This document shows positions 7,914-52,200 of a stretch of 64,000 nucleotides of DNA, piece by piece. A program made the translations under genes and the position numbers. Origin of the DNA: an uncultured Verrucomicrobiota bacterium (GTDB lineage Bacteria > Verrucomicrobiota > Verrucomicrobiia > Limisphaerales > J093); NCBI GenBank assembly GCA_964535555.1, contig CAZHUS010000019.1, positions 18,555 through 82,554 of the forward strand. The letters are read 5' to 3'. Numbering within the stretch: the first letter of the stretch is position 1; the number at the start of each line of letters is the position of its first letter. Under the pieces are notes generated by a model that was given only the letters and a program-made list of their open reading frames with translations, had not been told where the DNA came from and made no database searches.

Positions 7914-10900
7914 ATGCGCGTTAATCGTTCGGCGTCAATGCTCTCCATGAATCCCGCTCCCGAGTTCGTCCGCCGGAAGCTCGTCTCCCTGGTGCAGCTC
8001 GGCACCGCCTTGTTCCTCCTGCCGGCAACCGGGCGCGCCGAGACCGTGATCAACGAGCTTCACTTCAACCCGGACGTTAAGACGGAAGCCGTGGAGTTCA
8101 TCGAGCTCCACAACACGGCCTCGGAACCGGCGATCCTGACGGGCTGGCGCCTGTCTGACGGCGTGAGCTTCACCTTCCCGGACACGGTGATCCCCCCCGG
8201 AGGGTTCGTCGTGATCGCGGAAAACCCCGCCGCCCTCCAGGCGAAATTCGGCGTCAGCGCGCTGGGACCCTACGACGGGAAGCTTTCAAAGTACGGCGAC
8301 CGCGTCGTTCTCCGCGATCCGGGCGACGCCGTCCGGGATGAGGTCGAGTACGGCCTCGGTTTCCCCTGGCCGACCGTGGGCGATCCACCCGGCTATTCGA
8401 TCGAACTGATCCATCCGGGGCTCGACAACAATCTGGGTGGCAGCTGGCGCGCCTCGGTAACCGGAGGCGGCGTCCAGCCCACCTCGCGAACCCTCCTCGA
8501 GCGCCGCGGCTCGTGGCGGTACGCCAAGGGCGTCGGCGAACCCTCCTCGCCTTCCCCGGCCTGGCGGGATCCTGCCTTCCGCGATGAGGCCTGGGACGCG
8601 GGTGAGCTTCCCATCGGCTACGACCCTGCGCTCGACTTGGGAACGGTCCTGAGCGACATGCGCTACAACTACTCCTCGGTCTTCCTGCGCCGCGCGTTCA
8701 CCGTCGAGGATCCGGGTTCCGTTTCGGCGCTGGACCTCGAGGCCCTTTACGACGACGGCTTCAAGGTCTGGATCAACGGACGCAGCGTGCTGGATGTGAA
8801 CATCAGCGCGGGCGAGGTTGCCTTCGACGGAACGGCCGGTCCGGCGCGCGAGTCCAACGACTACGAGACCTTCGCCATGCCGAACGCGGCGGCGTTCCTC
8901 CAAAGCGGGGCGAATGTCATCGCCATCCAGCTCCACAACAGCTCGCGCGACGCCAGCAGCGATTGCTTCTTCGACTGCCGCCTCGTGGCCCGGTCGGGCC
9001 CGACCGGCCGCGGCCCGACCCCGGGCCGGGTCAATGCCGCGTTCGCCGCCAACGCCCCGCCGCAGGCGAGGCAGATCCAACATGTCCCGCGGGAACCGCG
9101 CAGCGGCGAAGCCGTTCGCATCACCGCGAAAGTCACGGACCCGGACGGCGTCGGGGCCGTGACGCTCCAATATCAACTCGTCGATCCGGGGGCCTACCTT
9201 GAACTGACCGACGCCGAGTACGAAAGCGCATGGACTCCGATGCCCATGCTGGACAATGCGCAGCAAGGAGACGAAGCCGCCGGCGACCAGGTGTTCACCG
9301 CGGTGTTGCCCGGTGATTTGCAGGTTCACCGCCGGTTGATCCGGTACCGGGTCGAGGTCGCCGACACAAGGGGCGCCTCGGTACGACTGCCGTACGCCGA
9401 CGATCCCCAGCCGAACTTCGCGTACTTCGTCTACGACGGCGTCCCCGCCTGGACGGGCGCGGTGCGACCGGGCAGCGCCGGTAACCTGGGTCAGACCTTC
9501 ACCGTGAGCGCGGCCGAGATGAACCGGCTCCCGGTGGTTCACCTGCTCGGGAAGCGGGCCGCGATTGAAGAGTCCACCTGGTTCAGTCGTTACGGGGGCG
9601 ACGCGTATCCCTGGCTCGGCACCCTGGTCTACGACGGACGCGTTTACGATCACATCCGTCACCGGGCCCGGGGCGGCGTCTGGCGCTATTCCATGGTGAA
9701 GAACATGTGGAAGTTCGACCTGAACCGCGGGCACGATTTCGAGGCGCGCGACAACTGGGGACGCAAGTTCGACACGCCCTGGACCAAGCTCAACCTTGGC
9801 GCCTCCATCCAGCAGGGCGACTACAACCATCGCGGCGAACAGGGCATGTTCGAGTCCGTCGGATTCCGGCTCTTTCAGCTGGCGGGCGTGCCGGCGCCGC
9901 ACACGGCCTTCTGTCAGTTGCGCATCATCGACACCCCGGAGGAAGTGGACGCCAGTACGCAATACGAAGGCGACTTCTGGGGCGTGTACCTGATGATCGA
10001 GCAGGAGGACGGACGCTTCCTCGAGGAACACGGACTCGCCGATGCCAATTTCTACAAGATGGAAGGCGGCACCGGTGAGCTCAACAACCTGGGCGCGGCG
10101 GGTCCGGTCAACAAGAGCGACTTGAACGCGTTCCTGAACGTGGTCAACGGCGGCGCCGCGGCCTCGGAAGCGTGGTTCCGCGCGAGCGTGAATCTCCCCG
10201 CGTACTACAGCTACCAGGCCATCGTGCAGGCGATCCACCACTACGACATCTGCTACGACAAGAACTTCTTTTACTACTTCAACCCCACGAACCAGGTCGT
10301 CACCGTCACGCCTTGGGACCTCGACCTGACCTGGGCCGAGAACATGTACGACCCCGGTTGCGGCGGCGTGGATCGCCTCAAATCGCGGATGCTCCCGAAC
10401 GCCTCGCGCTATCCCGCGCTCTGGCGTGAATGGCAGAACCGGATCCGCGAGGTGCGCGACCTGCTCTGGAACGAGGAGGAAGCCTGGCGCCTGATCGACG
10501 AGTACGCCGGCCGGCTTCGGGGCTCCACCAACGCGCCCGGCTTGCTCGATGCGGACCGGGCCCAGTGGGACTACAACCCCAAGATGAACAACAGCGCCTA
10601 CACCCAGAGCCCCGGAAAGGCGGGCCAGGGGCGCTTCTACGCCTGGCCGAACGAGCCTTCCGTCCCCCGCGACTTCCGCGGTGCCGTGCAGTTGATGAAG
10701 AACTACGTGAGCTTCCGCAGCACGAGCCCCGCCGCCCAGGCCCGCGCGCTCGACCTCCTGGCCGCAGACCCGGCCATCCCGGGGACGCCCGAGGTCACCT
10801 ATGCCGGACCCGCCGACTACCCCGTCAACGCCCTGCGCTTTCGCTGCTCGGCTTACAGCGGCAGCGCCTCGTTCGCCTCCATGCAGTGGCGGATCGGTGC

Positions 10901-13019
10901 GGTGGACCGACCGACCGCGCCAAGCTGGCAGTACGCCGAACCGTGGGCGTATGAAATCGAGGCGGTCTGGGAAAGCGGTCTCCTCGCGGCCTTTCAGGAG
11001 GAACTCGCCGTCCCGGCAGGCGTCCTCAAGCCCGGCCGGCTTTACCGCGCCCGGGCAAGGTTCCTGGACGCCACCGGCCGCGCCGGTCACTGGTCGGCCC
11101 CGGTCGAGTTCGTTGCAGGAACACCGGACAACCAGGTTGAACTCAAGCGCTCCCTGCGGCTCACGGAGCTGATGTTCCACCCCCCCGGCGGGAATACGAA
11201 TGAGTTCATCGAACTGCACAATGCGGATCCCGCCGCGACGCTCCGCTTGGATGGCGTCGCCTTCACCGACGGCGTGAACTTCGTCTTCCCACCGGGCGCC
11301 GCCCTCGCTCCGGCGAGCTACGCGCTGGTCGTGAGGGCGGACCCGTCGCGGAATTTCGAAGCTTTTCGCGCGCGTCACGGCATCCCCGAATCGGTGCCGA
11401 TCCACGGCCCCTACACCGGGAGTCTCGCCGATGACGGGGAACAACTGACGCTGAAAGCGGCAACGGGCGGCATCAACCTGGTCTCCTTCCGCTACCGGGA
11501 CGACGGCACCTGGCCGCTTGCCGCCGATGGTGCCGGCCATTCGCTGGTGCCTCGCTCCGATTTCGGCGAAGACAGCACCGGCCGGCTCGACTTCGGCGGT
11601 AACTGGCGTGCCAGCGCTTTCATCGGCGGATCACCCGGCGCGCCTGACCCGGAGCCAACCGACTGCGTCGTCCTGAACGAGATCGCTTCCCACACCGATT
11701 TCACCGGGGAGTTCGACTCCAACGACTGGATTGAACTCTACAACCCGGCCGAAGTCCCGGTCTCGCTCGCGGACGCCTGGTTCCTGAGCGACAGCGCCGA
11801 CGACCTTCGCAAGTGGCGGATTCCACCGGCAACCACGATCTCGGCGCGGGCATTCCGGAGCTTCGACGAGATCACCGGCTTTCACCACCCGACGAACACC
11901 GGGTTCGGAATCGACAAGGCCGGCGAACGTCTCTTCCTGAGTCACCTCCCGGGAAATGGAGCGGACCGTGTCGTGGATGCGGTGGAGCTTGCGGGCCAGG
12001 AGAACGGATGGGCCATGGCGCGGGTGCCCGATGGCGGCGTCTGGGACTACATCAACCCGAGAACGCGAGATGGGGCCGCGGTGCCCCTGGCGGGACGCGT
12101 GGTGATCAGCGAGTTCGTGTACCACACCGGTTTCGCCACGAACCTCGCCGATCCGGCCCAGCTCGAGTTCGTCGAGCTTCACAACGCGGCGGCGGGGCCT
12201 GCCCGGCTGGACGACACCCACGGGGTGTGGAGGCTCGGCGGCGGAATCAGCTTCGCGTTCGCGGCCGGGACGATCCTGCCGGCGGATGGACGCCTGGTGG
12301 TGGTCCCGTTTCCTCCGACCGACGCAACCCGGGTTGCCGCGTTTCGTGCCAGCTACCAGATCGGCTCAGTCGTCCGGCTGTTTGGTCCCTTCACCGGTCA
12401 GCTCGACAACGACACCGACCGCATCACGCTGGAACGTCCGCTCGCTCCGGATCTGCCCGGCGAGACCACCGGCACCGTGGTCGCGGACGAGGTTATCTAC
12501 TTCGATCAACCGCCCTGGCCGGGCAACGCGGACGGCAACGGGAACGGCTACACCCGACGCTTCGCTTCGCGACCCGGGAACGATCCCGCCAACTGGATGG
12601 CGACCACGCCATCGCCCGGCTCGGCGCCATCGCCTTCGACGCAGGACAGCGACGAGGATGGCATGCCCGATTTCTGGGAGCAGGCCCACGGCCTGGATCC
12701 CGCGGAAGCGGCGGATGCCGCCGCCGACCCGGACCGGGACGGCTTGACGAACCTGGAGGAGTTCCGTGCAGGTCAAGACCCGCACGAACACTCGGTGCGG
12801 CTGGTCGTGGCGGTACGGGACGGAGCGCTTGAATTCACCTTCCTCGCGCCCGCGGGACGAAGCACCGGTTTGGAAGCGTCGCCGACTGCGGACTCGGGCG
12901 ACTGGCTGCCGGTGTCGTCGACGGTCCTTGCGGCACAGGCAAGCACCGCGCCTCGCACGGTCCGGGTGGCGCCGCCGCCCGGTGCCTCGGCGTCCTTCTA
13001 CCGCGTCGGAATCTGGTGA
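7914..13019 (+). CDS. Secreted giant CotH-kinase-family protein with four lamin-tail domains (LTD) and TSP3-like repeats
   Basis: Signal peptide (LFLLPATGRAETVINE). LTD motifs (INE.H.NP..EFIELHN, LTELMFHPPG..NEFIELHN, LNEIASH..DWIELYN, ISEFVYH..EFVELHN). CotH core (YSMVKNMWKFDL..YEGDFWGVYLMIEQEDGRFLEEHGL). Start could be 7938 or 7947. Confidence 0.88.
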   Translation: MRVNRSASMLSMNPAPEFVRRKLVSLVQLGTALFLLPATGRAETVINELHFNPDVKTEAVEFIELHNTASEPAILTGWRLSDGVSFTFPDTVIPPGGFVVIAENPAALQAKFGVSALGPYDGKLSKYGDRVVLRDPGDAVRDEVEYGLGFPWPTVGDPPGYSIELIHPGLDNNLGGSWRASVTGGGVQPTSRTLLERRGSWRYAKGVGEPSSPSPAWRDPAFRDEAWDAGELPIGYDPALDLGTVLSDMRYNYSSVFLRRAFTVEDPGSVSALDLEALYDDGFKVWINGRSVLDVNISAGEVAFDGTAGPARESNDYETFAMPNAAAFLQSGANVIAIQLHNSSRDASSDCFFDCRLVARSGPTGRGPTPGRVNAAFAANAPPQARQIQHVPREPRSGEAVRITAKVTDPDGVGAVTLQYQLVDPGAYLELTDAEYESAWTPMPMLDNAQQGDEAAGDQVFTAVLPGDLQVHRRLIRYRVEVADTRGASVRLPYADDPQPNFAYFVYDGVPAWTGAVRPGSAGNLGQTFTVSAAEMNRLPVVHLLGKRAAIEESTWFSRYGGDAYPWLGTLVYDGRVYDHIRHRARGGVWRYSMVKNMWKFDLNRGHDFEARDNWGRKFDTPWTKLNLGASIQQGDYNHRGEQGMFESVGFRLFQLAGVPAPHTAFCQLRIIDTPEEVDASTQYEGDFWGVYLMIEQEDGRFLEEHGLADANFYKMEGGTGELNNLGAAGPVNKSDLNAFLNVVNGGAAASEAWFRASVNLPAYYSYQAIVQAIHHYDICYDKNFFYYFNPTNQVVTVTPWDLDLTWAENMYDPGCGGVDRLKSRMLPNASRYPALWREWQNRIREVRDLLWNEEEAWRLIDEYAGRLRGSTNAPGLLDADRAQWDYNPKMNNSAYTQSPGKAGQGRFYAWPNEPSVPRDFRGAVQLMKNYVSFRSTSPAAQARALDLLAADPAIPGTPEVTYAGPADYPVNALRFRCSAYSGSASFASMQWRIGAVDRPTAPSWQYAEPWAYEIEAVWESGLLAAFQEELAVPAGVLKPGRLYRARARFLDATGRAGHWSAPVEFVAGTPDNQVELKRSLRLTELMFHPPGGNTNEFIELHNADPAATLRLDGVAFTDGVNFVFPPGAALAPASYALVVRADPSRNFEAFRARHGIPESVPIHGPYTGSLADDGEQLTLKAATGGINLVSFRYRDDGTWPLAADGAGHSLVPRSDFGEDSTGRLDFGGNWRASAFIGGSPGAPDPEPTDCVVLNEIASHTDFTGEFDSNDWIELYNPAEVPVSLADAWFLSDSADDLRKWRIPPATTISARAFRSFDEITGFHHPTNTGFGIDKAGERLFLSHLPGNGADRVVDAVELAGQENGWAMARVPDGGVWDYINPRTRDGAAVPLAGRVVISEFVYHTGFATNLADPAQLEFVELHNAAAGPARLDDTHGVWRLGGGISFAFAAGTILPADGRLVVVPFPPTDATRVAAFRASYQIGSVVRLFGPFTGQLDNDTDRITLERPLAPDLPGETTGTVVADEVIYFDQPPWPGNADGNGNGYTRRFASRPGNDPANWMATTPSPGSAPSPSTQDSDEDGMPDFWEQAHGLDPAEAADAAADPDRDGLTNLEEFRAGQDPHEHSVRLVVAVRDGALEFTFLAPAGRSTGLEASPTADSGDWLPVSSTVLAAQASTAPRTVRVAPPPGASASFYRVGIW

Positions 13020-24036: not shown

Positions 24037-27000
24037 ATGACCAACATTCGCGCACTTCGGACGACCGGCCTGGCCGTGTTCGCTTTCTGCCTCGGCGCGG
24101 TCCTTCGGGCAGCCGACGCCCCCACGTTGAGCGTCAGAGCGCTGTCCGGCCGTGAGGTGGAAATCTCCTGGCCCGCGGCCGCCTCCGCCTATGTGCTCCA
24201 CGAGGCTCCCTCGGTCGGACCGGGCGCCGCCTGGAGCCCGGTGACTCAAGCCCCCGTTCCCCGGGGCGACTCCCTGCTGGTGCTCGTCAACGCCATCGCC
24301 AGCGACCGCTACTTCCGCCTGGTTTCCACAGGTCCCGCCGCCCTGACCACGATCGCCAGCACCTCCCCGCCCAACGGCGCCAACGGCGTGGCCGTGACCC
24401 GTGAGACCGTCATCGATTTCTCCGCGCCGCTCGCCGCCGACACGGTGCTCACGCCCACCCAGTTCTATGCCGAGTTCGGCGGCCGCCGCTTGCTGTCGCG
24501 CATCGAACTGGGAACCGACCGGCGCCGCGCTTCCCTCTTTTATCTCGAGAACCTGCCCGCCGGTGCCCGGGTCCGGGTGACTCTCGATGGTTCGAGTGTC
24601 CGGGACAGCAACGGCCAGGCCCTGGATGCCGACGGGGACGGCCAGGCCGGGGGCAGCCGGCAGATCTTCTTCGACACGTTCAGCACCACCCCCGTCGCCA
24701 CCGCGGCGGTGATCGGCCATGTGTTTGCCTCCGATCCCGAACCCGGCGGCGCCCCGGGCGAATTCGTCAACCGGCCTCTCGCGGGGGTCACGATCACCGT
24801 GGACGGCGCCGAGGAGACCTTGAGGACCACAACGGATGCCTCGGGATTCTTCAAGCTGCAACCCGCACCCGTCGGACGGTTTTTCGTTCACGTGGACGGC
24901 AGAACCGCTCAAGGCAGCCAGTGGCCGGGCGGGAACTACTACCCGTTTGTAGGCAAGGCTTGGGAAGGCGTTGCGGGAAGGGATAACACCCTGGCGGCGG
25001 GCACGGGCGAGATTTTTCTCCCACTGGTGAAGCAGGGCACGCTGCAGACCGTGAGCGCGACCGAGGCCACGCGCGTCACCTTTCCGCCCGAGGTGATCTC
25101 GGAGAACCCGGCGCTCAAGGACGTCCAGGTGTTGGTGCCAGCCAACGCGCTCTACGCCGACGACGGCACGCGCGGCGGCAAGGTCGGCATCGCGCCGGTC
25201 CCGGCCGACCGGCTGCCGGAACCCCTCCCCCCGGGTCTCAACCTGCCCCTGGTGATCACCATCCAGACCGACGGCCCGCAGAACTTCGCGGAACCTGTTC
25301 CCGTCCGGTTCCCGAACCTGCCTGACCCCGCCACGGGCAAAAAGCTGGCCCCCGGGGCCAAGAGCGCCTTGTGGAGTTTCAATCACGACACCGGAAAATG
25401 GGAAATCGTAGGCCCGATGACGGTGACCGCAGACGGGAACTATGTGGAGACCGACCCCGGGGTGGGCGTACGCCAGCCTGGCTGGCACGGGACCTTCCCT
25501 GGATCGGACGGCAATTGCGACAACCTCCTCGGAGGTGACGGAGATGGTGACGGAGATGGCGATGGCGATGGCGATGGCGATGGCGATGGCGATGGCGACG
25601 GCGATGGCGATGGCGACGGCGATGGCGACGGCGATGGCGACGGCGATGGCGACGGCGATGGCGACGGCGATGGCGATGGCGATGGCGACGGCGATGGCGA
25701 TGGCGACGGCGATGGCGATGGCGACGGGGACGGAGACTGTGAAGTCACCGAGCCTGCCTGCCCGCCGAACGCGCCGGGACCCGTTGACCAGAGCGACTGG
25801 CCGGTCACCTCGAACGATGCCGACCCTGGCGGCAACTACACCAGCCATCGTGGCTTTGAGATCCAAGGGGGGGTCTGCTTCGATTCGGCCTCCCAAAGCT
25901 GGAAGTACCGCGTCAACCGCCTGGTCTGGCGGGGCAACATCAACACCAGCACCAACAGCGGTCTGGTCAGCACCGAGCCGGTGCCGGTCGATGGCGGGAA
26001 CGTCACTCAGGCCAATCAGTGCACAATCATCACCGAAATGGCCGGGTATCTCGGCCGCGGTCGAGGCGTCTGGCACATGCGGGCGGCCAGCCTGGCTCAC
26101 GAAGTCCATCACCGCGACATCGACTGGCCCGGCATCGTCAATCCACTCTGGCAGAACATCGAAGCCGCCATCGAGGCGGAGAGCGTGCCTTGCGAAAAGA
26201 GCTTCGCCGAAGCCGAACTCATCCTGAACGCGAAGGTCAACGCGGCCCTCGGCAACCTGCAGACGCAGTTCTCGGCGGATCTGACCACGTTCAATGCCGG
26301 GCACGACGGGGCCAAGACCGACGGAGCCTACCAGGCGGGCCAGAACGTCCTGAACGGACGCATCCAGGAGATCCGCGACTACGCCAACGCGAAGGGCTGG
26401 CCGGCGTGCCCACCGTTCTTCCTGGCCCGACATCCTGCCGGGCTCGCCGGGCCCGGAGTGCCACCGATCGTTGCCCTCAACGCCGAGGCCCCGCTGGAAG
26501 TACTCTCACCTCCCCAGACGACCCGCCTGCAGGTCGTGGGCACCCGCGATGACGGGTCCACCGTGGACCTCACCACCGCACCCGGCACTCGCTATGAGAG
26601 CACAGACCCATCCGTGATCACTGTCGCGGCCGACGGACTGGTAACCGCGATTGCACCCGGCGACGCGACCGTGATTGTGCGGCACAGCCCCGATATCGAT
26701 GGCCATCCGCGTTATGCCAGTGCGAACTTCACCGTGCCCCGGCCCACCGACCTTGATCACGACGGCATGCCCGACCAGTGGGAGCGCGATCGCGGGCTGA
26801 ACCCGGGCAGCGCCGCCGACGCCCTGGCTGACGCCGACCGCGACCTCCTCCACAACGTCCGGGAATTCGAGCTCGGAACCGATCCCAACAAGGCCGATAC
26901 CGACGGCGACGGCCGCTCCGACAACCAGGAACTCCTCGACGGGACCAACCCTCTCAAGGCTGACACCCGGTCACGTCCCCTCTCGCTCGGACTGCACTAC

Positions 27001-29628
27001 TTCCTGTTGATGAACCTTGAGACGGGTCGGATCGAGCAGCGCGGCGTCACCGGCCGCAACGGCGAGGGGCATGAAAGCCTCATCATGGCTCCGGACACCC
27101 GTTACCGGCAGTGGGTGTTCCATCCCGCCACGGGCCGGATCGGCACGGCGGATTGGATCAGTGGCCGCAGCGGAACGCGGTTCCTCTTGCCCGCGGTCAT
27201 CCTGCGGCGCGACCGCTCGGAAGACCAGGACAACGACGGCTTGCGCGACGCGGCGGAACTGATCATGGGCACCAGGAGCACCGACCCCGACACCGACGGG
27301 GACGGCGTGATGGATGGCGCCGAAGTCCGCGCCGGCACCAATCCCAATGACGGCCTGCCCGTCGCGACCGGAGTCATCGGTACTGCGGAAACCCCGGGAA
27401 CAGCCGTCGACGTGGTGGCCCGCAACAACTACGCCGTGGTGGCCGATGCGGGCGCCGGCGTTTCCATCTTCAACATTCAGAGCGGATTCACGCCCACCCT
27501 GGTGGCGCAGGTCGACACCCCGGGAAATGCCCGTGCCGTGGCGGTTCTCGGATTGCCCACCTCGAGAGACGAGCTTCGCGTGGCCGTGGCGGACGGCCCC
27601 GCCGGCCTGACCGTCGTGGATTTGGAGCTCCCGGCAAACGCCCGAATCACCCAGCAGGTCAACCTGGGCAGCCCTGCCCTTTGCGTGACCCTGCGAGGCG
27701 GGTTGGCCTACGTGGGCCTGGAAAACGGCCGGGTCGCCGTGGTGGACACGTACAGCGGGCTCGTGATGGAACGGCTCCTGGTCCAGGAACGCGTCTCGGA
27801 TATCGGCATCGTGGGTGAAACTCTCTTTGTCGCCGGCCAGTCGCAGCTCCGCACCTTCTCGTTGCTCGATCTCGCGGCCGGTCCCCTCGACTCCGTGGCG
27901 CTTCGGTTCTTCCCCGAGGGCATTACCCAGCGCCGCCGTCTCTTCCTCGGAACGACCCACGCCTTTGTCACCGGCTACCCGAGTTACGACGTGATCTCGA
28001 TCGCCAACCCGGCGGACTTGGTTCGCGTGGGCGATGCGATCGACAACGGCCCCAATTCCTTCAAGCAGATCGTCGACAACGGCTCCGGTCTGGGCATCGC
28101 CGCCGTCGGGGTCAACCCCCGCAACGACGGGACCCACCACGTCTCGCTCTACAACGTCTCGGATCCCACCAAGACGTCCCAGTTCCTATCTACGCTTACC
28201 ACGCCCGGCGTCGCCCACGCCGTTTCGCTCTACAACGGGCTGGCGTACGTCGCCGACGGGGAAGCGGGTCTGCAGGTGGTGAACTTCCTCGCCTATGACT
28301 CCGGCAACCAGCCTCCCAGCCTCTCGTTAACGGCGGACTTCCCCCTGGATCCGGCCGTCAGCGAAGAGGGGAAGCTCGTGGAGGTCGTCGCCCTGGCTCG
28401 TGACGATGTGCAAGTCGCCCGGGTTCAGTTTCTCGTCAACGGGACCGTGATTGGCACGGACGGCAACTTCCCGTTCAGTCAGCGCTTCCTCACGCCGCTC
28501 CGGGACGCAGCCGGCCAGAACAACACCTTTACCCTGCGCGCCCGCGCTTTTGACACCGGCGGCAACGCCACCTGGTCCACGGAGCACATCGTCACGCTGG
28601 TTCCCGATGCCACGGCCCCGCGGGTCCGAAGCAAGTTCCCGGCGGCGGGAGCGATCGTCGGCTCGACCGACACCGTGGCCGCCTACTTCACCGAGGCGCT
28701 CGATCCCGCCACCGCGAACCTCAACACCATCCTCCTCGTCTCAGCCGGGGCGGACGCCACATTCGGCACCGCCGATGACGCCGTGTTGCCCGGAGGCACC
28801 GTTGATTACCGCGGCAGCATTCAGGCCGCGTTCCTCAGTTTCGCTGAAAACCTCGCTCCCGGTCTCTACGGCGTCGTGGTGCGCCGCCCGCTCGCCGATC
28901 TCGTCGGAAACGCGCTGGCTGCCGACGTCGTCTGGACCTTCTGGGTCTTGGGTCAGACGGATGCCGACTCGGACGGCGTTCCGGATAACGTCGAACCCAG
29001 CCTCGGGCTGGACCCCAACAACCCCGATAGCAACGGCAACGGCATCCTCGACGGCCAGGAAGATCCGGATCGCGACCGGCTGGGCACCAGCTGGGAACTT
29101 GTTTTCGGTCTCGACCCGCGCTTGGCGGATTCGGACAGCGACGGTCTGAACGACGACCTCGAGGACGGCGACAACGACGGACTGTCCAACTTCGGGGAAC
29201 AGGCTGGTGGCGCCAATCCCAATAACCCCGACTCCGACGGCGACGGCTGGGATGATAACGGCGAGGCGGCCGACGGGAGCAGTCCCGCCGATCCGGCCTC
29301 GACACCCCGGGTCGCGCTGCGATCTGCCCTCCTCTCCTTCCTGAACGCGGTCGCGCAAACTCCTCCGCCGGGCACCCCGCTGCAGGTCGTGTCCGGCACG
29401 GCCAGCTACCTTAATGCGACGGCCGAAGCGCCGCCCGCAGGGACGCCTCTGACCGTGACCTCGCCGTTGGCCAGCTACCTCAACGCGCTCGGGGACGGGC
29501 CCCCGGCGGGGACTCCGCTCCAGGTGCTGTCGCCGTCAGCCAGTTACCTTAACCAGGTGCCCCAGACCTACTCCGGACCGGTCCTGGTTCCCTCCCGAAT
29601 CGTGAGCTATTTGAACCAAGCCCCGTGA
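24037..29628 (+). CDS. 1863-aa secreted multidomain surface protein. Order: N-terminal YFRL module, Big_5/SbsA-Ig, CarboxypepD_reg-like, (GD)34 linker, Cys-rich HExxH domain, Big_2, TSP3 repeats, LVIVD beta-propeller, Ig, TSP3 repeats, SYLN repeats.
   Basis: ATG 24037 gives the signal peptide MTNIRALRTTGLAVFAFCLGAVLRAADA. The track ORF start (23356) is an antisense read-through of argA. Domain calls come from motif reading (LVIVD: NYAVVADAGAGVSIFNI; TSP3: DTDGDGRSDNQE). Confidence 0.85.
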   Translation: MTNIRALRTTGLAVFAFCLGAVLRAADAPTLSVRALSGREVEISWPAAASAYVLHEAPSVGPGAAWSPVTQAPVPRGDSLLVLVNAIASDRYFRLVSTGPAALTTIASTSPPNGANGVAVTRETVIDFSAPLAADTVLTPTQFYAEFGGRRLLSRIELGTDRRRASLFYLENLPAGARVRVTLDGSSVRDSNGQALDADGDGQAGGSRQIFFDTFSTTPVATAAVIGHVFASDPEPGGAPGEFVNRPLAGVTITVDGAEETLRTTTDASGFFKLQPAPVGRFFVHVDGRTAQGSQWPGGNYYPFVGKAWEGVAGRDNTLAAGTGEIFLPLVKQGTLQTVSATEATRVTFPPEVISENPALKDVQVLVPANALYADDGTRGGKVGIAPVPADRLPEPLPPGLNLPLVITIQTDGPQNFAEPVPVRFPNLPDPATGKKLAPGAKSALWSFNHDTGKWEIVGPMTVTADGNYVETDPGVGVRQPGWHGTFPGSDGNCDNLLGGDGDGDGDGDGDGDGDGDGDGDGDGDGDGDGDGDGDGDGDGDGDGDGDGDGDGDGDGDGDGDGDGDGDCEVTEPACPPNAPGPVDQSDWPVTSNDADPGGNYTSHRGFEIQGGVCFDSASQSWKYRVNRLVWRGNINTSTNSGLVSTEPVPVDGGNVTQANQCTIITEMAGYLGRGRGVWHMRAASLAHEVHHRDIDWPGIVNPLWQNIEAAIEAESVPCEKSFAEAELILNAKVNAALGNLQTQFSADLTTFNAGHDGAKTDGAYQAGQNVLNGRIQEIRDYANAKGWPACPPFFLARHPAGLAGPGVPPIVALNAEAPLEVLSPPQTTRLQVVGTRDDGSTVDLTTAPGTRYESTDPSVITVAADGLVTAIAPGDATVIVRHSPDIDGHPRYASANFTVPRPTDLDHDGMPDQWERDRGLNPGSAADALADADRDLLHNVREFELGTDPNKADTDGDGRSDNQELLDGTNPLKADTRSRPLSLGLHYFLLMNLETGRIEQRGVTGRNGEGHESLIMAPDTRYRQWVFHPATGRIGTADWISGRSGTRFLLPAVILRRDRSEDQDNDGLRDAAELIMGTRSTDPDTDGDGVMDGAEVRAGTNPNDGLPVATGVIGTAETPGTAVDVVARNNYAVVADAGAGVSIFNIQSGFTPTLVAQVDTPGNARAVAVLGLPTSRDELRVAVADGPAGLTVVDLELPANARITQQVNLGSPALCVTLRGGLAYVGLENGRVAVVDTYSGLVMERLLVQERVSDIGIVGETLFVAGQSQLRTFSLLDLAAGPLDSVALRFFPEGITQRRRLFLGTTHAFVTGYPSYDVISIANPADLVRVGDAIDNGPNSFKQIVDNGSGLGIAAVGVNPRNDGTHHVSLYNVSDPTKTSQFLSTLTTPGVAHAVSLYNGLAYVADGEAGLQVVNFLAYDSGNQPPSLSLTADFPLDPAVSEEGKLVEVVALARDDVQVARVQFLVNGTVIGTDGNFPFSQRFLTPLRDAAGQNNTFTLRARAFDTGGNATWSTEHIVTLVPDATAPRVRSKFPAAGAIVGSTDTVAAYFTEALDPATANLNTILLVSAGADATFGTADDAVLPGGTVDYRGSIQAAFLSFAENLAPGLYGVVVRRPLADLVGNALAADVVWTFWVLGQTDADSDGVPDNVEPSLGLDPNNPDSNGNGILDGQEDPDRDRLGTSWELVFGLDPRLADSDSDGLNDDLEDGDNDGLSNFGEQAGGANPNNPDSDGDGWDDNGEAADGSSPADPASTPRVALRSALLSFLNAVAQTPPPGTPLQVVSGTASYLNATAEAPPAGTPLTVTSPLASYLNALGDGPPAGTPLQVLSPSASYLNQVPQTYSGPVLVPSRIVSYLNQAP
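25534..25737 (+). repeat. Hexanucleotide microsatellite (GGY-GAY)x34 encoding (Gly-Asp)34
   Basis: 204 nt of ggcgat/ggcgac units read directly, in-frame with the giant CDS. Confidence 0.95.
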
Positions 29629-29690
29629 GTTCGCCGCGCCATCGCACCACCAACCTTCAATCTCCGCAATCTGTGCAAACCGAGAAGCCC

Positions 29691-31748
29691 ATGAACACAA
29701 ACCTCCGCAACTGCCGCCGCTTCCTGGCGTCGGCCCGAGCGCTGCCGCTCCTCGCGGCGACGCTGCTGTTACCGCCGGTGCTGGCGGTCGACCCCGACCT
29801 GCCCTTCAGCAGTGGTTCCACGGGTGCTGACGGGCCCTTGAGGTTCCGCGAGATCGCCACGGGCCGGAACTCGCACGGGATGGCCTATGATCCGGTGCGG
29901 CAGCAGGTGGTCGTGTTTGGCGGCTACAACGGGAACAGCCTGGGCGATACCTCGACGTTCGACGGCACCAACTGGGTGCGGCGTTTCCCTGCCTCCAGCC
30001 CGGTCGATCGCTGGGGCCACCGCATGGTCTGGGACGCCGCCCGCAACGAAGTCGTCCTCTTCGGCGGCACCCGCAACACGGGCCGCTTGAATGACACCTG
30101 GACCTGGAACGGGACCAACTGGACCCAAAAATCGCCGACCACCGCGCCATCACCCCGGGACAACTTCTGCCTCGCCTACGATGCCGCCCGGCAGCGCGTG
30201 GTCCTCTTCGGCGGCGCCAACGGCGGCCAGGAAACCTGGCTCTGGGACGGCACCAACTGGACCGCCGCCAATCCCCCCAATCGGCCCCAGGCCACCGACC
30301 GCAGCGCCATGGAATACCACGTGACGCGCCAGGAAATCGTCCTGTTCGGCAACTACGGCCAGACCTGGATCTGGAACGGCACCGATTGGACGCAGCGCGG
30401 CTCCTTCCATGTGCCGGCCGCAAAAAGCTGGCCCACGCTCATCAACGACGGCACGAGCAACACCATTCTGATGTTCAGCGGCAGCAACCAGCAGGAGACC
30501 TGGTCCTGGAACGGCGAGGACTGGACCGAGCTCACCCCCCCGGCTTCCCCAAGCGGCCGCCAGTACCACCAAATGGTCTATGATACCACGAACCAGCGGG
30601 GTGTGATGTTCGGCGGCGATGTTCCCGGCGTGGACAACTACAGTGCGGATACTTGGTTCTTGAAGGCCGGCGCCTGGACCTCGTGGAGCAGCAAGATCCA
30701 GCTCTTCGACATGAGCTCACGCCCGAGCGGCGTATACAACTTCACCTCGATCACCATCCCGGCTGGCGTGACGGTCGCCTGGGTTATCACCAACCTCTAC
30801 TTCCCGCCCGTCCGTTGGCTCGCCACCGAGGATGTGGTGATCAACGGCTCCATCGACGTTAGCGGCCAATTCGCAGCGAACAACCTGCCTCCGGGCGTGC
30901 CGGCTCGAGGCGGCCCGGGTGGTTACGATGGCGGCCTGGGCGGCGTTCGCTTCAATTCCTCGGCAGCCTACGTGGGCCAACCCGGCAAGGGCCCCGGCGG
31001 CGGCGAGCCTGGCACCGCCCAGCAGACGAATCCCAACCTCCGCGACGGCAAACCGGGTGAGTACGCCAGCGACTACGGCAATGCCTTCCTCCAGCCCCTT
31101 GCAGGCGGTTCCGGTGGCGGCGGCGGCGCTTCCAACGCGGATTGGGACGGGGGCCGCGGCGGCGGCGGCGGCGGCGCCATCATGATCTCCTCGTCGCGCG
31201 ACATCATCATCAATGGCGTGATCCGCGCGAACGGGGGAGAGTATCAGTGGAGCAACGCCAGTTACGGCGGGCGCGGCTCCGGCGGCGCCATCCTGCTGCG
31301 GGCCGATCGGGTCACCGGCCCCGGATCCCTCGAGGCGTACGGCGGCCATCCCAACAATCCCAACGGCCGGATTCGCGTCGAGGCTTACGCCCGCACCCTC
31401 ACCGGCGGCCAAACCCCCCCCGCCGTGGTCGGACTTCCTGCGGCCAACGGTGGACTCAACCAGATTGGTTCGCTCTCGATCGTGAGTGTCGACGGCGCCA
31501 ATGTCGTGCAGCCTCCGAGCGGGAACCTGCAAACACCGGATGTCGTCTTCAGCGACGCGGGTCCGGTGGCGGTGGTCGTCAGCGCGACCGGGGTCCCCAA
31601 CGGCACGCCCGTCACCCTCACCATCACGACGAGCAGCTCCATCATCACGGCGGGTCCCCAAAACCTCCAGGAGGGGACCGCCACCTTCAACGCCACCGTG
31701 CCCGCAGGCATCGGCACGCTGCAGGCCACGGCGCAGTTCACGCAGTAA
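29691..31748 (+). CDS. Secreted Kelch beta-propeller protein with a C-terminal glycine-rich beta-helix-like region and Ig-like tail
   Basis: Signal peptide (LPLLAATLLLPPVLAV). At least 6 Kelch-like blades (VVVFGGYNG..DTSTFDGTNW, VVLFGGTRN..DTWTWNGTNW, and more). Gly-rich block GGSGGGGGASNADWDGGRGGGGGGAIMISS..GGRGSGGAILLRA. An alternative GTG at 29625 overlaps the upstream stop. Confidence 0.8.
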   Translation: MNTNLRNCRRFLASARALPLLAATLLLPPVLAVDPDLPFSSGSTGADGPLRFREIATGRNSHGMAYDPVRQQVVVFGGYNGNSLGDTSTFDGTNWVRRFPASSPVDRWGHRMVWDAARNEVVLFGGTRNTGRLNDTWTWNGTNWTQKSPTTAPSPRDNFCLAYDAARQRVVLFGGANGGQETWLWDGTNWTAANPPNRPQATDRSAMEYHVTRQEIVLFGNYGQTWIWNGTDWTQRGSFHVPAAKSWPTLINDGTSNTILMFSGSNQQETWSWNGEDWTELTPPASPSGRQYHQMVYDTTNQRGVMFGGDVPGVDNYSADTWFLKAGAWTSWSSKIQLFDMSSRPSGVYNFTSITIPAGVTVAWVITNLYFPPVRWLATEDVVINGSIDVSGQFAANNLPPGVPARGGPGGYDGGLGGVRFNSSAAYVGQPGKGPGGGEPGTAQQTNPNLRDGKPGEYASDYGNAFLQPLAGGSGGGGGASNADWDGGRGGGGGGAIMISSSRDIIINGVIRANGGEYQWSNASYGGRGSGGAILLRADRVTGPGSLEAYGGHPNNPNGRIRVEAYARTLTGGQTPPAVVGLPAANGGLNQIGSLSIVSVDGANVVQPPSGNLQTPDVVFSDAGPVAVVVSATGVPNGTPVTLTITTSSSIITAGPQNLQEGTATFNATVPAGIGTLQATAQFTQ

Positions 31749-31777
31749 CGCGCGTCAATCCCCTGACCGCTGATCTC

Positions 31778-31811
31778 GAACGGAGCGGCTTCGGCCGCTC
31801 CGTTCTTTTTT
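31778..31811 (+). terminator. Rho-independent terminator
   Basis: Perfect 12-bp stem gaacggagcggc / gccgctccgttc, loop ttcg, then tttttt. Lies 30 nt after the Kelch gene stop. Confidence 0.85.
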
Positions 31812-31926: not shown

Positions 31927-32967
31927 TCATCGCCCCATCAGGTGTTCGAGCACCAACTGGTCGAGCGCCGCATAGTTCCGGTCGGCCACCAGTTTCTGGG
32001 CTTCGTCCTCGGGGAAGGCCCGGGCTTTCTCCACCAATCGGAGGAACGTCCGCCGGCTGTTCTCGAGGTGGGCCGTCCAATGTTCGACTTTGGTGGTGCG
32101 GAACGGGTGCACGTCGAAGGCGACGTACTCGCCCTTGCGGCCGTAACCGTTGCGCTCGAGCGCGCGGACCTGGTTGAACGCCACGCGCAGATTGGCGGAG
32201 CCGAAGGGCTTGTCCTGGTCGAACTTCAGACCGTTCTGGTCGTTGAGGTGAAGCGACCACAGCTTGCCGAACATGCAGGCGAAATCGATCTCATCCGCAG
32301 GGTCGAGTCCGGCCAGCAAGGCGTGCGCGGTTTCGATCAGGCAGCCGACGCGTTTCGGATCGTCGGTGAGGTTCGACAGGGCCAGCGCGTGTCCAATCGT
32401 CGGCAGGTAGGCGAGATCCATCGGCTCATTCGGTTTCGGCTCGATGGCGATGCGGACGTTCTTGTCATGGGCGAGCATCTTGTTGATGGCCTCAACCAGT
32501 TGATCGAAGCATCGGCGGGCGTTCTTGCTTTCGCGGATGTAGCTGCCTTCGCGCGCCAGCCAGAGGACCACCAGGTTGCAGTCCAGGTAGTTGCCCACAT
32601 CGATGCATCGCAGCGAGCGTTCGATCGCGTATTTCCGGCACTTGGGATCGTTGCTCGTGTAGGCGCCGTCGATGGTGCGCTCGTCAAACCACAGGCGGGG
32701 CGCGACGATCTCCGCCACGATGCCGGCATCATCGAGCTTCTTCTTAAGGGCCTTGGACTCGGCTTTCAGCTGGGCGTCCGACTTGTCGTTGATGTCGGGC
32801 ACGGCGTCATCGTCGTGGAACATCATGGCGTCGTAGCCGAGTTCCTTCAGCTTCCCCAGCTTCCAGTCGAACGACTGGACCGGCCGCGTCGGCGGACCGT
32901 AAGGATCTTGACCTTCGCTCAGGTTCCAGGGACCGAAGCAGAACTTGTACGTCGTCGCTTTAGGCAT
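31927..32967 (-). CDS. Xylose-isomerase-like TIM-barrel enzyme (XylA-related sugar isomerase)
   Basis: KFCFGPWNLSEGQDPYGPPTR, VVLWLAREGSY and RIAIEPKPNEP resemble short (actinobacterial-type) XylA. ATG 32967 is used. Confidence 0.7.
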   Translation of the reverse strand: MPKATTYKFCFGPWNLSEGQDPYGPPTRPVQSFDWKLGKLKELGYDAMMFHDDDAVPDINDKSDAQLKAESKALKKKLDDAGIVAEIVAPRLWFDERTIDGAYTSNDPKCRKYAIERSLRCIDVGNYLDCNLVVLWLAREGSYIRESKNARRCFDQLVEAINKMLAHDKNVRIAIEPKPNEPMDLAYLPTIGHALALSNLTDDPKRVGCLIETAHALLAGLDPADEIDFACMFGKLWSLHLNDQNGLKFDQDKPFGSANLRVAFNQVRALERNGYGRKGEYVAFDVHPFRTTKVEHWTAHLENSRRTFLRLVEKARAFPEDEAQKLVADRNYAALDQLVLEHLMGR

Positions 32968-33254
32968 AGGTGTTGTGGCCGTCAGCTTAGGAATCACCAG
33001 CACTTTGGGAAGGAAAAAGCCCACGACCCACGACCCCACCACCCTGCGGCCCGACGGAGCCAAAGGCTGCCGGCGCATGTGACCCACCGCCCTGGCATTT
33101 CACGCCCGTGCGCCCCCAACACGACCCTCCGCCCGCCCCCTGGTCCCTGACGTTTTCCTGAAACAGCTATATCGAAAATCGGTACCGAGGCGCCGAGCTC
33201 CGACACCCAGCGAGGAGCGGGAAGACCGTGGGAGAGACCGCTGCGACCATCCGC

Positions 33255-49166: not shown

Positions 49167-49277
49167 GACGACGACGGGCGGCGTCGATCACACCAATACA
49201 CGAGCGCCGTGGAGCAGGCTCCTCCCCGTCGGTTCGGCCCGGTTGCGTGCCGCGGGCGGCCCGTTCAAGCTGCGTCC

Positions 49278-52200
49278 ATGAAAGCGGCCCAACTGGTGGC
49301 CCACGGGGCGCCCGGACGCGTTGAGATTCGCGATGTTCCAGACCCCACGCCTGGCCCCGGCGAGGTGGTGGTTCGCGTTCGACAGTGCGGCGTGAATCGG
49401 CTCGACCTGTGGCTCGAGGAAGGGGCGCTGCCGATCCCGATCGAACTTCCCCGCACGCCGGGCAGCGAAATCGCCGGCGACGTGCATGCCGTGGGTGAGG
49501 GCGTCCAGGATTTCCGCGAAGGCCAACGCGTGGCAGTGCAGTCGAACCTGTTCTGCGGCACGTGCGAGTTCTGTGCGCGGGGCGAGGAGTCGCTGTGCCT
49601 GAATGCGCAACTGCTCGGGGTGCAGGCTGACGGCGGGTTTGCCGAACTGGCACGGGTTCCGGCCACGGCCCTCGTAAGCCTCCCCGCGGAGGTCTCCTAC
49701 GAAACCTCGGCTGCGTTGACGCTGGCCGGCAGCACGGCGATGCACATGTTGATCGACCGGGCGACGGTGCGGCCAGGCGACTGGGTCTTGGTGATGGGCG
49801 GGGCCAGCGGTGTGGGTTCGGCGGCCATTCAGATCGCGCGCGGCCTCGGAGCCCACGTGATCACCACCGCGTCGAACGCGGCGAAGCGTGCCCTGGCCCT
49901 GGAGCTCGGCGCCGAAGGCGTGGTCGATTCGTCGTTGCCAACGTGGCCCGCCGAGGTGCGCAAATTGTCCGGGCGCCGCGGCGTTGACCTTGTGGTCGAA
50001 CACGTGGGGGGAAGGGTTCTCGAACAGGCCTTTCACTGTCTCGCGCGGGGCGGAACGGTCGTGACCTGCGGCGCCACCGCGGGACGGCAACCGACCTTGG
50101 ACCTCTGGCCGTTCTTCGTGAAGCAGCAACGACTGGTTGGCAGCTACGGCCGGACGCGGCGAGACATGCGCGCGACGCTGGACTGGGCGGCGTCGGGTCG
50201 CTTGAAGCCCGTCGTCGATCGCGTCTTCCCGCTGGCCGAAACCGCCGCGGCACTTGGGGCCCTGAGAAGGCGCGAGGTTCTGGGCAAGGTCCTGGTCGCG
50301 TGCGCGAGCGTTTTGTTGATGGCGCTGCCGCGGGTCCACTCGCAGCCCTGCTTCGAGGACCGGCCCGTGGACCATGATGTCCACGAAGCCCGCCCGCTCC
50401 CTCATTCCCGGGCGAACGATGTCCGCCGCCTGGCCCTCGGATCCGACGGCCGGGTGTGGGCAGCGACCGCGGGAGGCGTGTTCGTGACGACAGACCAACC
50501 GGCTCCGTGGGTGGACTTGGAACCCTCGGCTCTGGACGGTCCGGCTTTCGACATCGCGGCCGATGTTGAAGGCGGCATCTGGGTTGGAAGCTGGAACGGC
50601 TTACACCATCTGATCGACGGCAAGGCCACGCGGGTCGCTGGCGTCGAAGGCCCGATCGCCGCCGTGAGCGCGGCGACCAACCTTGTTCTCGCCGCGGGGC
50701 CGGAGGGTAGCTACCTGGCTCGTGACGGACAATGGGAGCGAATTGAAACAGGCGCGTCGCGGTACCTTCATCGCGTGGCGATCGAGCCTGGCGGAGCTTG
50801 CTGGTTCGCCACCGGCATGGGCTTGTATCGCTGGACACCCGGTGGGGGAGCGTACTTCCGCGTGCCCTTCGACCGGGTCAGCGCGGACGTTCGGGATTGG
50901 GCGGCCGAGGATGACGGCGGGGTGGTCGCGGGCACGTTGGGCGGGTTGGAGCGGTTTCGCAAGGGACGATGGCACCGCTCGGATGAGGCGAGCGACGGTC
51001 TTCCTTCCGCCGACGTGCGCTGCGTGGCGCGTGGTGCTGACGGCCGCCTGTGGGTGGGCACGGCACGCGGTCTGGCGCGGCAGGAGGATTCGGGGTGGGC
51101 GGTTCGCATGGGACGGCGTTGGCTGCTGGACGATGACGTTCGGGATGTTCTCGTTGGCACGAACGGCTCGGCGTGGGTGGCAACGGCGGGCGGCGTGAGC
51201 GTGCTCCGGCGCCACCAGATTTCGCTGGCCGAAAAGGCCCGGCGCTTTCATGACGTGCTCGAGGCCCGCCACGTCCGGCCGCCGGGCCTGGTCGAGAAGT
51301 GCCGCCTGAGCAAGCCGGGCGACGTCTCGAGCTGGACGCCCATGGACGACGACAATGACGGTGGCTACACCGCCGTTTACCTGGCCATGGAATCGTACCG
51401 TTACGCCGTCACGGGTGATCCCAAGGCGTTGGCCGGCGCCCGGCGCGCCCTCGCTTCGCTGGAACTCCTGCAACGCGTCACCGGCACTCCGGGATTCGTG
51501 GCGCGCAGCGTGGTGCCTTCGGACTGGACCCAGATGCATGATCCGAACGTCGCGTGGAGTGAGGCTGAATGGGCCGCGGCCCGGATCGGCGATCCGCGCG
51601 CCAAGCGGGTGCCGGAGCGCTGGCGGCGTTCATCCGATGGCCACTGGCTCTGGAAGGGCGACACCAGCAGCGACGAGATCACGGCGCACTTCTTCGGCTA
51701 TTACGTCTTTCATGAACTCGCGGCGGACGCCAGCGACCGCGCGCGTATCCGGGACCAGGTCTGCCGGATCACCGACCACCTTGTCGACCATGGGTTCACG
51801 CTGACCGATCTCGATGGCCAGCCCACGCGCTGGGGCGTGTGGGCGCCGGAGCGACTGAACGAGGATCCCGACTGGGCGATGGAACGGGGCATCAACTCGG
51901 TCGAGATGCTCTCGTTTCTGAAGCTCGCCTCCCACGTCAGCGGCCGCGCCGAGTACGACGCCCGCTACCGTGACCTCATCGAGCGGCACCACTACGACCG
52001 CAACGTGGAGGAGGCGCCGAACCTCAACCCGGCATGGCGGACGCATATCGACGCGGAACTGCTGGCGTTCGCGTATCCTGCGTTGCTGGCGCTGGAGACT
52101 GATCCTCGACTTCGCAAGCTGTACCGCGCGAGCTTCGAGCGCTGGCACGAGGCGGTCCGCGCCGATCGCACCGCCTTTTTCGAACTCCTCTACGCGGCTC

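Follow-up and report, generated by a model that had tools for sequence, protein, structure and literature searches.

We describe a two-gene unit located at 24037-31811 of a 64-kb stretch of DNA from an uncultured Verrucomicrobiota bacterium (the window, which hereafter means the whole stretch that was analysed). The unit encodes a giant secreted protein of 1863 amino acids (aa) ending in an array of SYLN repeats, which we call the tail, and, directly downstream, a 685-aa Kelch/Gly-rich protein, which we call the partner. Across genomes the partner is preceded in strict synteny by a tail-bearing cargo protein, the tail being the invariant element of the cargo, and the giant exchanges an internal cassette at a sharp junction. 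With moderate confidence, we propose that both proteins form a two-component, Sec-exported extracellular or surface complex, in which a polymorphic effector or adhesin would dock via its tail to the partner.

An earlier note on this DNA had placed two signal-peptide proteins back-to-back at this locus, and the map of open reading frames (ORFs) and the translations confirm them at those positions. The giant occupies 24037-29628 on the plus strand, with its stop codon at 29626-29628, and begins with a Sec-type signal peptide as read from the sequence (MTNIRALRTTGLAVFAFCLGAVLRA/ADA). The partner runs on the same strand from an ATG at 29691 to a stop at 31746-31748, and its N-terminus (MNTNLRNCRRFLASARALPLLAATLLLPPVLA/VDPD) is likewise a signal peptide. 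An alternative GTG start at 29625 is present in the sequence; the ATG agrees with the length and the N-termini of more than 50 homologues. The 62-nucleotide (nt) gap between the genes (29629-29690, +) holds no terminator-like site, and in homologous loci this gap ranges from about -3 to about +95 nt. Downstream of the partner, an intrinsic terminator at 31778-31811 (+) ends the two-gene unit, with a 12-bp stem containing 9 GC pairs (31778-31805) followed by T6. The note had called it the only strong one of the window; it is indeed the best single-hairpin terminator of the 64 kb, the sole comparable site being on the minus strand near 54328. On the 5' side of the unit lies an ArgA-like gene in divergent orientation (22536-23927, minus strand), and on its 3' side a convergent sugar-isomerase-like gene (31927-33087, minus strand). 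From the gap, free of a terminator, and the terminator after the partner, we infer that giant and partner are co-transcribed as a two-gene operon.

Regarding the conservation of the pair, every evaluable locus with a Kelch/Gly-rich homologue (around 20 loci, with 33-85% identity) has a same-strand upstream gene whose product ends in the tail, so the two genes form a conserved unit; the lack of co-conservation in relatives, which the note had named as refuting its proposal, is not what is seen. The length of these upstream proteins goes from 207 to around 1900 aa. More than 100 full-length partner homologues of around 685 aa are found in Verrucomicrobiota metagenome-assembled genomes (MAGs), the nearest named relatives being from Pedosphaerales/Verrucomicrobiales MAGs. 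In loci L001, L003, L004 and L007, a TSP3/LVIVD/Big_7/Big_5 protein of 1501-1867 aa lies directly 5' of the partner and the other neighbours differ, and in L006, L008 and L010 the upstream tail protein has just 574, 297 and 207 aa, respectively; the smallest cargo proteins (207 aa) retain the N-terminal Ig domain and the tail alone. With one genome scanned per GTDB species, 13 loci were recovered in which at least the Kelch half of the partner is matched. The upstream ORF bears a tail in 11 of them (L011-L018, L020, L021 and L023), at distances that range from overlapping to around 95 nt. L019 has just 320 nt of upstream sequence, in which the tail motif is still visible in part, and L022 is a Kelch-only match. 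Among loci selected with the Gly-rich part of the partner, 50 of the 56 evaluable genes are preceded on the same strand by an ORF of at least 140 aa, the median distance from its end to the SGSTG motif being 143 nt. Finally, when the ORFs of 90 loci were clustered all against all, only the families of the partner and of the upstream cargo proved ubiquitous, and no third universally conserved gene, such as an export component, emerged. Several pairs can be present in one genome, each with its own partner, as in Loclat_bin-20771 (L046, L048 and L066) and STL-NOB1 (L054 and L086). There is also one fused protein of 930 aa (P0175, L091:216-3008), in which a cargo Ig domain, TSP3 repeats and one VSFLNE motif are joined to a mature Kelch/Gly-rich partner.

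The tail of the giant (29299-29628, +) consists of five repeats of 21-23 residues and ends in VSYLNQAP-COOH, followed by the stop codon. Its SxLN motifs are found at residues 1767, 1790, 1813, 1836 and 1857, with spacings of 23/23/23/21, the first of them being SFLN, and the Ser, Leu and Asn positions are invariant in the repeats. Across loci, the number of repeats varies from 2 to around 10, with a period of 21-23 residues (mostly 23) and periodicity z-scores of 5-15 in most loci, and the C-terminus of the cargo is conserved, with [VI]S[YF]xN[QE] at or near the end. The tail is the sole element common to all the proteins encoded upstream of the Kelch/Gly-rich protein. A tail profile search of a large protein database gave 13 matches only, mostly contig-end fragments, and the link between tail and partner was established from gene neighbourhoods instead. 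Partners lacking the Kelch propeller are also preceded by periodic tails, with z-scores of 5-16: 'ISVQN...ISIENTTP' in Anaerolineales, 'FSILN' and 'LSLLN' in Acidobacteriota, 'VSVxMP' in Nitrospirota and 'VSVSID' in Geobacteraceae. One Anaerolineales locus (L025) encodes a near-complete giant homologue of 1983 aa, and its partner has no Kelch.

The partner, encoded on the plus strand throughout, starts with the signal peptide and a conserved mature N-terminus, 'DPDLPFSSGSTGADGPL' (29691-29846). It continues with a six-blade Kelch propeller (29847-30695), lying between the SGSTG strand and the 'NFTSITIP' strand, and with a Gly-rich module (30696-31415) that contains GGPGGYDGG, PLAGGSGGGGG and GGGGGGAIMISS and then a short beta-solenoid. 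It ends in an Ig-like beta-sandwich (31458-31748, up to the stop codon) with weak Ig-like Foldseek matches. The Kelch part scores 75.4 bits with PF24681 (cut-off 50) and 35.8 bits with Kelch_3 (PF13415, cut-off 22), and the fold matches of the propeller are KLHDC2, LZTR1, KLHDC10 and Keap1 (E ~1e-13). The AlphaFold2 model is composed of the six-blade propeller, a beta region, the Gly-rich stretch and the short beta-solenoid with the Ig-like sandwich. Its predicted local distance difference test values are 86.8 for the full partner, 88.0 for the C-terminal half and above 90 for the Kelch blades; around 100 Gly-rich residues are modelled confidently and carry no DSSP secondary structure. For the C-terminal half, Foldseek gave no fold match in the PDB (best E 0.088, Ig-like noise), and in BFVD only uncharacterised Gly-rich viral proteins with TM-scores of at most 0.44. 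One PHROGs family of unknown function matches this half with an E of ~2-4e-3, and tblastn against phage genomes gave no match.

An exhaustive HMMER search with the C-terminal half of the partner retrieved 2067 clusters at E <= 1e-3, 1300 of them at E <= 1e-10 (clusters being representatives at 50% identity), from Verrucomicrobiota, Planctomycetota, Nitrospirota, Acidobacteriota, Chloroflexota and Pseudomonadota. The members of this Gly-rich family matched no model of Pfam or NCBIfam. Many of them are stand-alone secreted proteins of 400-470 aa, in which the signal peptide is followed by 'SGSTGxxGAL' and closely then by 'NYTTVNIPxGVTV'. In the partner of the window, the propeller is placed exactly between the SGSTGxxG and NFTSITIP elements. 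Judging from these sequences, the Kelch propeller is an insertion into a wider Gly-rich domain, and the real signature of the system is the Gly-rich module; the propeller, which the earlier note had named as one part of the partner, is not its conserved element, with Kelch-less members also following periodic-tail proteins. The module is found as well N-terminal to an RHS toxin (P0272) and to FG-GAP repeats (P0249), and in five copies in a protein of 5597 aa (P0200). The Kelch propeller came up as a possible receptor of the tail on account of its fold matches to C-degron receptors and of the conserved cargo C-terminus, and was down-weighted because Kelch-less partners pair too. Since these follow the same kind of tail, the tail most likely relates to the Gly-rich/Ig module, and a contact of the SYLN tail with the Kelch propeller is the less likely of the two.

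To characterize the variation of the giant, we compared 12 giants, that is 66 pairs. The 185 aa ending in PGWHG match in all 66 pairs, with a median identity of 67%, and the 315 aa after PGWHG match in only nine of them, which leaves at least seven unrelated cassettes. The giant is hence a polymorphic, cassette-swapping protein with a sharp conserved-to-variable junction at PGWHG, and conservation resumes after the cassette at the TSP3/mid-domain scaffold. The linkers that follow PGWHG are GD, poly-G, poly-P, D-rich or G/N/P low-complexity sequences. As for the cassettes, they contain the HExxH domain (window, L001, L011 and L014), a GWGFSPDG-repeat domain (L004 and L012), a phospholipase A2 (PLA2)-like domain with 'CKAHDIGY' (L013), hydrophobic Gly-zipper-like segments (L003, L007 and L016) or Cys-rich or helical domains (L017 and L025). 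The PLA2-like domain ('CKAHDIGYNTCG'), found in the protein encoded at L013:2867-7771 from the Verrucomicrobiales MAG SJ352, lies around 60-130 aa after PGWHG, in the same position as the HExxH domain of the window; it matches PLA2G12 (E = 6e-6) and Phospholip_A2_3 (E = 2e-4), both below the gathering thresholds.

In the window, the variable cassette opens with a low-complexity linker, an exact (GD)34 run at residues 500-567 (25534-25737, +). It is encoded by around 30 near-perfect GATGGC units (25543-25724), and these repeats make the tract prone to slippage, so that it could differ in length between strains. The GD runs of L001, L011 and L014 are of similar, not identical, length to that of the window. 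The linker is followed by the lineage-specific HExxH domain (residues 568-800, 25738-26436, +), with HEVHH at residue 688 (26098-26112), and the cassette ends with a Big_2 Ig-like domain (26464-26721, +) that is common mainly to the HExxH clade and only marginally recognized by Pfam (residues 850-881, 23.5 bits with a cut-off of 22.8). The HExxH domain is restricted to the window, L001, L011 and L014 and to the fragments L009, P0121 and P0122, and a word-indexed database search with it gave two fragments only. The earlier note had described it as Cys-rich: the HExxH motif is there, and the Cys-rich character comes down to six cysteines, which are six of the nine Cys of the giant and lie within residues 568-791. 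HE[VI][HY]H, the six Cys and E147, E151 and E153 (+17, +21 and +23 from the second His) are invariant in five sequences, an invariance that says little because these are 63-73% identical. No peptidase model or solved structure matched the domain in Pfam (E <= 10), in NCBIfam or in a profile search of the PDB. From its motif, we consider it a candidate zincin-like zinc metallopeptidase effector, and the built-in protease that the note had asked about is a putative one at the level of the motif. Besides, no Pfam match at E <= 10 was found for the tail, for the C-terminal half of the partner (noise aside) or for residues 300-498 of the giant. The (GD)34 run, the HExxH domain and the SYLN array are as unassignable as the note had held, with no match in Pfam, NCBIfam or the PDB. 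The first two had been given emphasis there, and they do not define the system: they are part of a lineage-specific cassette, in place of which other giants carry unrelated sequence.

Apart from cargo and partner, the sole further recurrent family in the 90 loci is that of the RHS toxins (DUF6531, RHS repeats, e.g. Ntox44), which are adjacent and on the same strand in 13 of them; the Kelch-type loci L018, L020 and L021 are among these. The RHS loci are linked to the giant by a domain without Pfam model that we call domX (residues 300-485, 24934-25491, +), which ends in the invariant QPGWHG and forms the best-conserved part of the giant (60-80% identity over residues 300-498 in region-by-region BLAST). 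A domX profile finds 24 of the 90 partner-selected loci, including RHS toxins and other large proteins. In six RHS proteins (L027, L036, L054, L057, L076 and L086) domX comes after a transthyretin-like domain, as in the giant, and the linked RHS toxins carry the same type of transthyretin-like domain at their N-terminus. The partner family is also present in the cultured Eleftheria terrae (L090, NZ_CP106952.1, 23072-48511), where five same-strand genes encode, in this order, an IPT/TIG protein, a Gly-rich 'hypothetical protein', a 2121-aa Ig-like protein, an RHS protein and an ankyrin protein. This proteobacterial cluster type has no domX. In the non-verrucomicrobial loci L054, L045 and L042, small tail-bearing proteins and proteobacterial TIG proteins carry a single RHS/YD repeat beside an IPT/TIG domain, which may be a handle for a neighbouring RHS toxin. 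The earlier note had noticed neither the exchange of cassettes nor this link to RHS toxins.

In the complex that we propose, the giant opens with N-terminal domains that stay constant (Ig, Big_5, a transthyretin-like domain and domX, up to PGWHG), followed by the low-complexity linker and the swappable internal cassette, here (GD)34, the six-Cys HExxH domain and Big_2. A constant, Ca2+-stiffened scaffold of TSP3 repeats, propeller, Big_7 and Big_5 would present this effector-like cassette, and through the five strand-like SYLN repeats of around 23 residues that end the giant, the partner would bind its cargo. The partner would serve to anchor or traffic the cargo or, with lower likelihood, would form a distal binding tip, and its Kelch propeller may add a ligand-binding face. 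From gene order and tail conservation we infer a physical contact between tail and partner, and from the HExxH motif a putative protease activity; the complex may serve effector presentation and antagonism, or else adhesion. Some observations weigh against this proposal. Six of the 56 partner-family genes have no upstream ORF, and upstream of the proteobacterial members of the family there is a TIG protein with an Ig-like domain, and no periodic tail, at its end, so the tail is not universal for the partner family. The fusion P0175 is known from one 6.5-kb metagenome contig and could be an assembly artefact. HExxH is a five-residue motif kept only among sequences that are 63-73% identical, and no metallopeptidase model matches the domain. 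Finally, the window has no RHS gene (no YD-rich ORF, and no RHS Pfam hit in the giant), and it lacks an immunity-like gene as well as any recognisable component for export across the outer membrane, which makes a reading as toxin weaker for this locus. A broader version, which we put forward only tentatively, is that tail and Gly-rich protein constitute an undescribed, phylum-spanning docking/delivery module with a new fold, the HExxH domain being a new metallopeptidase effector. The Gly-rich partner would then tether or hand over giants, and also RHS toxins by way of small tail-bearing adaptors.

One could argue that the partner is instead a folding, assembly or export helper that recognises the C-terminal repeats transiently and stays outside the final structure, similar to a phage tail-fibre chaperone or an usher. 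Such a helper would suit the 1:1 adjacent gene order with the helper 3' of its client, the common tail on unrelated cargo bodies and the genomes that contain more than one cassette, with a separate partner for each. We regard it as unlikely, given that the partner is large (400-700 aa) and has its own signal peptide and adhesin-like modules (Kelch and Ig-like), and that a Gly-rich module fused to RHS and to FG-GAP repeats, and repeated five times in the 5597-aa protein, suits a structural module better. The tail repeats themselves allow another explanation, in which they would be a curli-like, self-assembling beta-solenoid or amyloid and the Gly-rich solenoid of the partner would nucleate or cap a fibre or matrix. 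The repeats of CsgA have the same size and number as the five of the tail, whose imperfect units of 21-23 residues keep Ser, Leu and Asn invariant, and the short beta-solenoid of the partner has exposed rungs. The segments between the strands of the tail are, however, Pro-rich (PPAGTP), the tail matches neither Curlin_rpt nor any other Pfam model, and the number of repeats varies from 2 to around 10. Moreover, no CsgG/E/F-like genes were recognised in the Pfam-listed neighbourhoods and no curli-secretion-like family in the clustering of the 90 loci, and we find a curli-like tail very unlikely.

Both genes might also be co-regulated only, with no physical interaction of their products: the giant would be an ordinary adhesin, the partner an independent protein of the Kelch lectin-like type, and the cassettes a source of adhesin specificity and not of effector function. 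Big_2/5/7, TSP3, propellers and Kelch are indeed all typical of surface adhesins, and the window lacks an immunity gene, RHS and any toxin model. What renders this explanation quite improbable is that synteny is kept down to 33% partner identity and across phyla as the other neighbours change, that a 207-aa cargo keeps just the N-terminal Ig domain and the tail, that the fused protein P0175 exists, and that the cassettes include a PLA2-like one besides hydrophobic, Gly-zipper-like ones.

In order to contextualize the proposed two-component complex, we compared the locus with known systems. As the earlier note had concluded, no described secretion or adhesin system fits. Rejected by their defining features were RHS toxins (at this locus), RTX adhesins, two-partner secretion, the Sdr/Clf adhesins, the Myxococcus gliding proteins, curli, cohesin-dockerin and polyglycine domains of the ALK or gp38 type. 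By analogy, it would work most like a polymorphic toxin/adhesin system with an accessory protein, with resemblances to cohesin-dockerin and to the phage proteins gp37/gp38. As in polymorphic toxins (RHS/YD, CdiA-type), a constant scaffold is joined at a conserved motif (PGWHG) to exchangeable domains, and domX, like the partner family, is found at RHS toxin loci that have immunity-like genes. Unlike in these, the variable cassette of the giant is internal, not C-terminal, export goes via an N-terminal Sec signal, and the window lacks RHS repeats, an immunity gene and markers of type V, VI and VII secretion systems (T5SS, T6SS and T7SS). The chain of Ig-like domains, the Ca2+-binding repeats, the ligand-binding modules and the acidic spacers are shared with RTX adhesins (MpIBP/LapA) and with the Myxococcus TSP3 proteins CglD and MtsD. 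Nevertheless, in contrast to RTX adhesins exported by type I secretion systems (T1SS), the giant has an N-terminal signal peptide and neither RTX repeats (no HemolysinCabind hit) nor a T1SS C-terminal signal, and giant adhesins lack the dedicated downstream partner and the repeat tail found here. The Myxococcus gliding proteins were rejected on their NCBIfam scores, which were 43.8 for CglD (cut-off 400), 36.4 for MtsD (cut-off 800) and 22 for AgmC_N (cut-off 275); these matches are due to TSP3 or Gly-rich composition, and AgmC_N gave no hit in the Kelch-less partner homologues.

Regarding cohesin-dockerin, there is also a short, repeated C-terminal module beside Ca2+-binding repeats that tags diverse cargo for a partner, and Pfam Dockerin_1 picks up the TSP3-like repeats of some cargo homologues. 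A cohesin domain is absent from the partner, though, the tail is unrelated to the dockerin F-hand, and the pairing here is 1:1 and adjacent, whereas one scaffoldin serves many enzymes. In T-even phages, the gene of the long tail fibre protein gp37 comes first, followed by that of the Gly-rich gp38, which attaches to the C-terminal end of the fibre. The gene order is alike in our locus, and the Gly-rich stretch of the partner model would be compatible with a polyglycine-II (PGII)-type packing, but the partner matches no phage protein of known function in either sequence or fold, and no PGII domain of the ALK/LTK or gp38 type was found in it (no Pfam PF12810 hit, and a best PDB Foldseek E of 0.088). 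The Kelch proteins that bind termini (KLHDC2, KLHDC10 and Keap1) are the best fold matches of the propeller, and the cargo C-terminus is conserved; they differ in that identity is 13-20% and that the partner is secreted, bacterial and without BTB or cullin context. Microbial surface components recognizing adhesive matrix molecules (MSCRAMM) of the Sdr/Clf type share a long acidic dipeptide spacer, with SD in place of GD, but here the host is Gram-negative and there is no LPXTG or A-domain. The NCBIfam hits to MSCRAMM Clf/Sdr (26-29 bits with cut-offs of 999-2500) fall on the GD repeat only and were discarded as an artefact. Finally, nothing indicates two-partner secretion or an autotransporter, with no two-partner secretion (TPS) or Omp85/POTRA Pfam hits and no barrel in the model of the partner.

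The remaining domains of the giant, all on the plus strand, complete its constant parts. The signal peptide (residues 1-25, 24037-24111), with a charged n-region, a hydrophobic core and LRA/AD at its end, is followed by an N-terminal Ig-like domain (residues 26-104, 24112-24348, ending in 'RYFRLV') that other giants share and that also stands at the N-terminus of the minimal tail proteins P0124, P0125 and P0127, of 207-291 aa. The first Big_5 Ig-like domain (around residues 100-225, 24334-24711) is detected by Pfam and has BLAST matches in 13 loci. It is followed by a CarboxypepD_reg/transthyretin-like domain (residues 225-300, 24709-24936), whose Pfam match (E = 6e-4) is below the cut-off and which is 60-93% identical between giants by BLAST. 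After the cassette, the conservation of the scaffold resumes with TSP3 Ca-binding repeats around a conserved small beta domain (residues 975-1062; 26734-27351). Further on there are a propeller-like region with LVIVD-type repeats (residues 1105-1430, 27349-28326), conserved in 18 loci, a Big_7 (residues 1435-1499) with the second Big_5 (residues 1524-1635; both within 28339-28941), and a C-terminal TSP3 Ca-binding cluster (residues 1640-1745, 28954-29271), which precedes the tail in most cargo proteins. Pfam scores were 65.4 for Big_5 in two stretches (gathering threshold 23.6), 38.4 for TSP3_bac (25) and 34.7 for Big_7 (24.1). LVIVD (PF08309) reaches 22.3 bits over the whole protein (threshold 20.2), no single stretch passes, and the matches in homologues are likewise faint or weak. 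From the modules that the earlier note had listed, Big_5, TSP3 and, marginally, Big_2 stand; its 'many TSP3' are three clusters, and its LVIVD propeller is weak.

Regarding the surroundings of the pair, the ArgA-like gene (amino-acid kinase and GNAT) adjoins the giant also at L003:3252-4532 and L009:1351-2379, a synteny that probably reflects relatedness and not function. GC content shows no anomaly across 23.8-32 kb, and a recent horizontal acquisition of the cassette was therefore rejected. There is no paralogue of giant or partner elsewhere in the 64-kb window. Around 11 kb upstream of the pair, and unrelated to it, an ORF at 7914-13019 (+) encodes a 1701-aa protein of secreted type in which a CotH kinase domain accompanies three Lamin-tail domains. 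Another ORF (49209-52505, +; 1098 aa) combines zinc alcohol-dehydrogenase domains (residues 49-363) with Reg_prop propeller repeats (around residue 600); it is a fusion of an unusual kind or else two ORFs merged into one. We also detected three copies of a GC-rich hairpin element of around 45 nt, 'T[GT]GGAGCGGCGCGAAGCGTTTGGAGTGCGTCCGCTTT[AG]GCGGCGC' followed by T5, which end at 7770 (+), 54423 (+) and 48363 (-); it may be a dispersed repeat similar to repetitive extragenic palindromes (REP) or to miniature inverted-repeat transposable elements (MITE).

In the literature that we searched there is no description of the pair, of the Gly-rich family, of domX or of the tail. To our knowledge, how RHS and other large polymorphic toxins with a Sec signal only get to the Gram-negative surface and act there is poorly understood. 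The Gly-rich family is a candidate accessory family for the Sec-dependent export of RHS toxins, the C-terminal tag on its neighbours makes this link testable, and the Eleftheria terrae cluster offers a tractable model for the partner family. Polymorphic proteins are usually pictured with a variable C-terminal part, and the exchange of an internal cassette at the fixed PGWHG junction extends this picture. The findings would yield three new domain models (Gly-rich module, domX and tail), reclassifying thousands of 'hypothetical proteins'. If true, the docking module would give polymorphic toxins a new way to be displayed at the surface or delivered, one that depends on none of T5SS, T6SS and T7SS.

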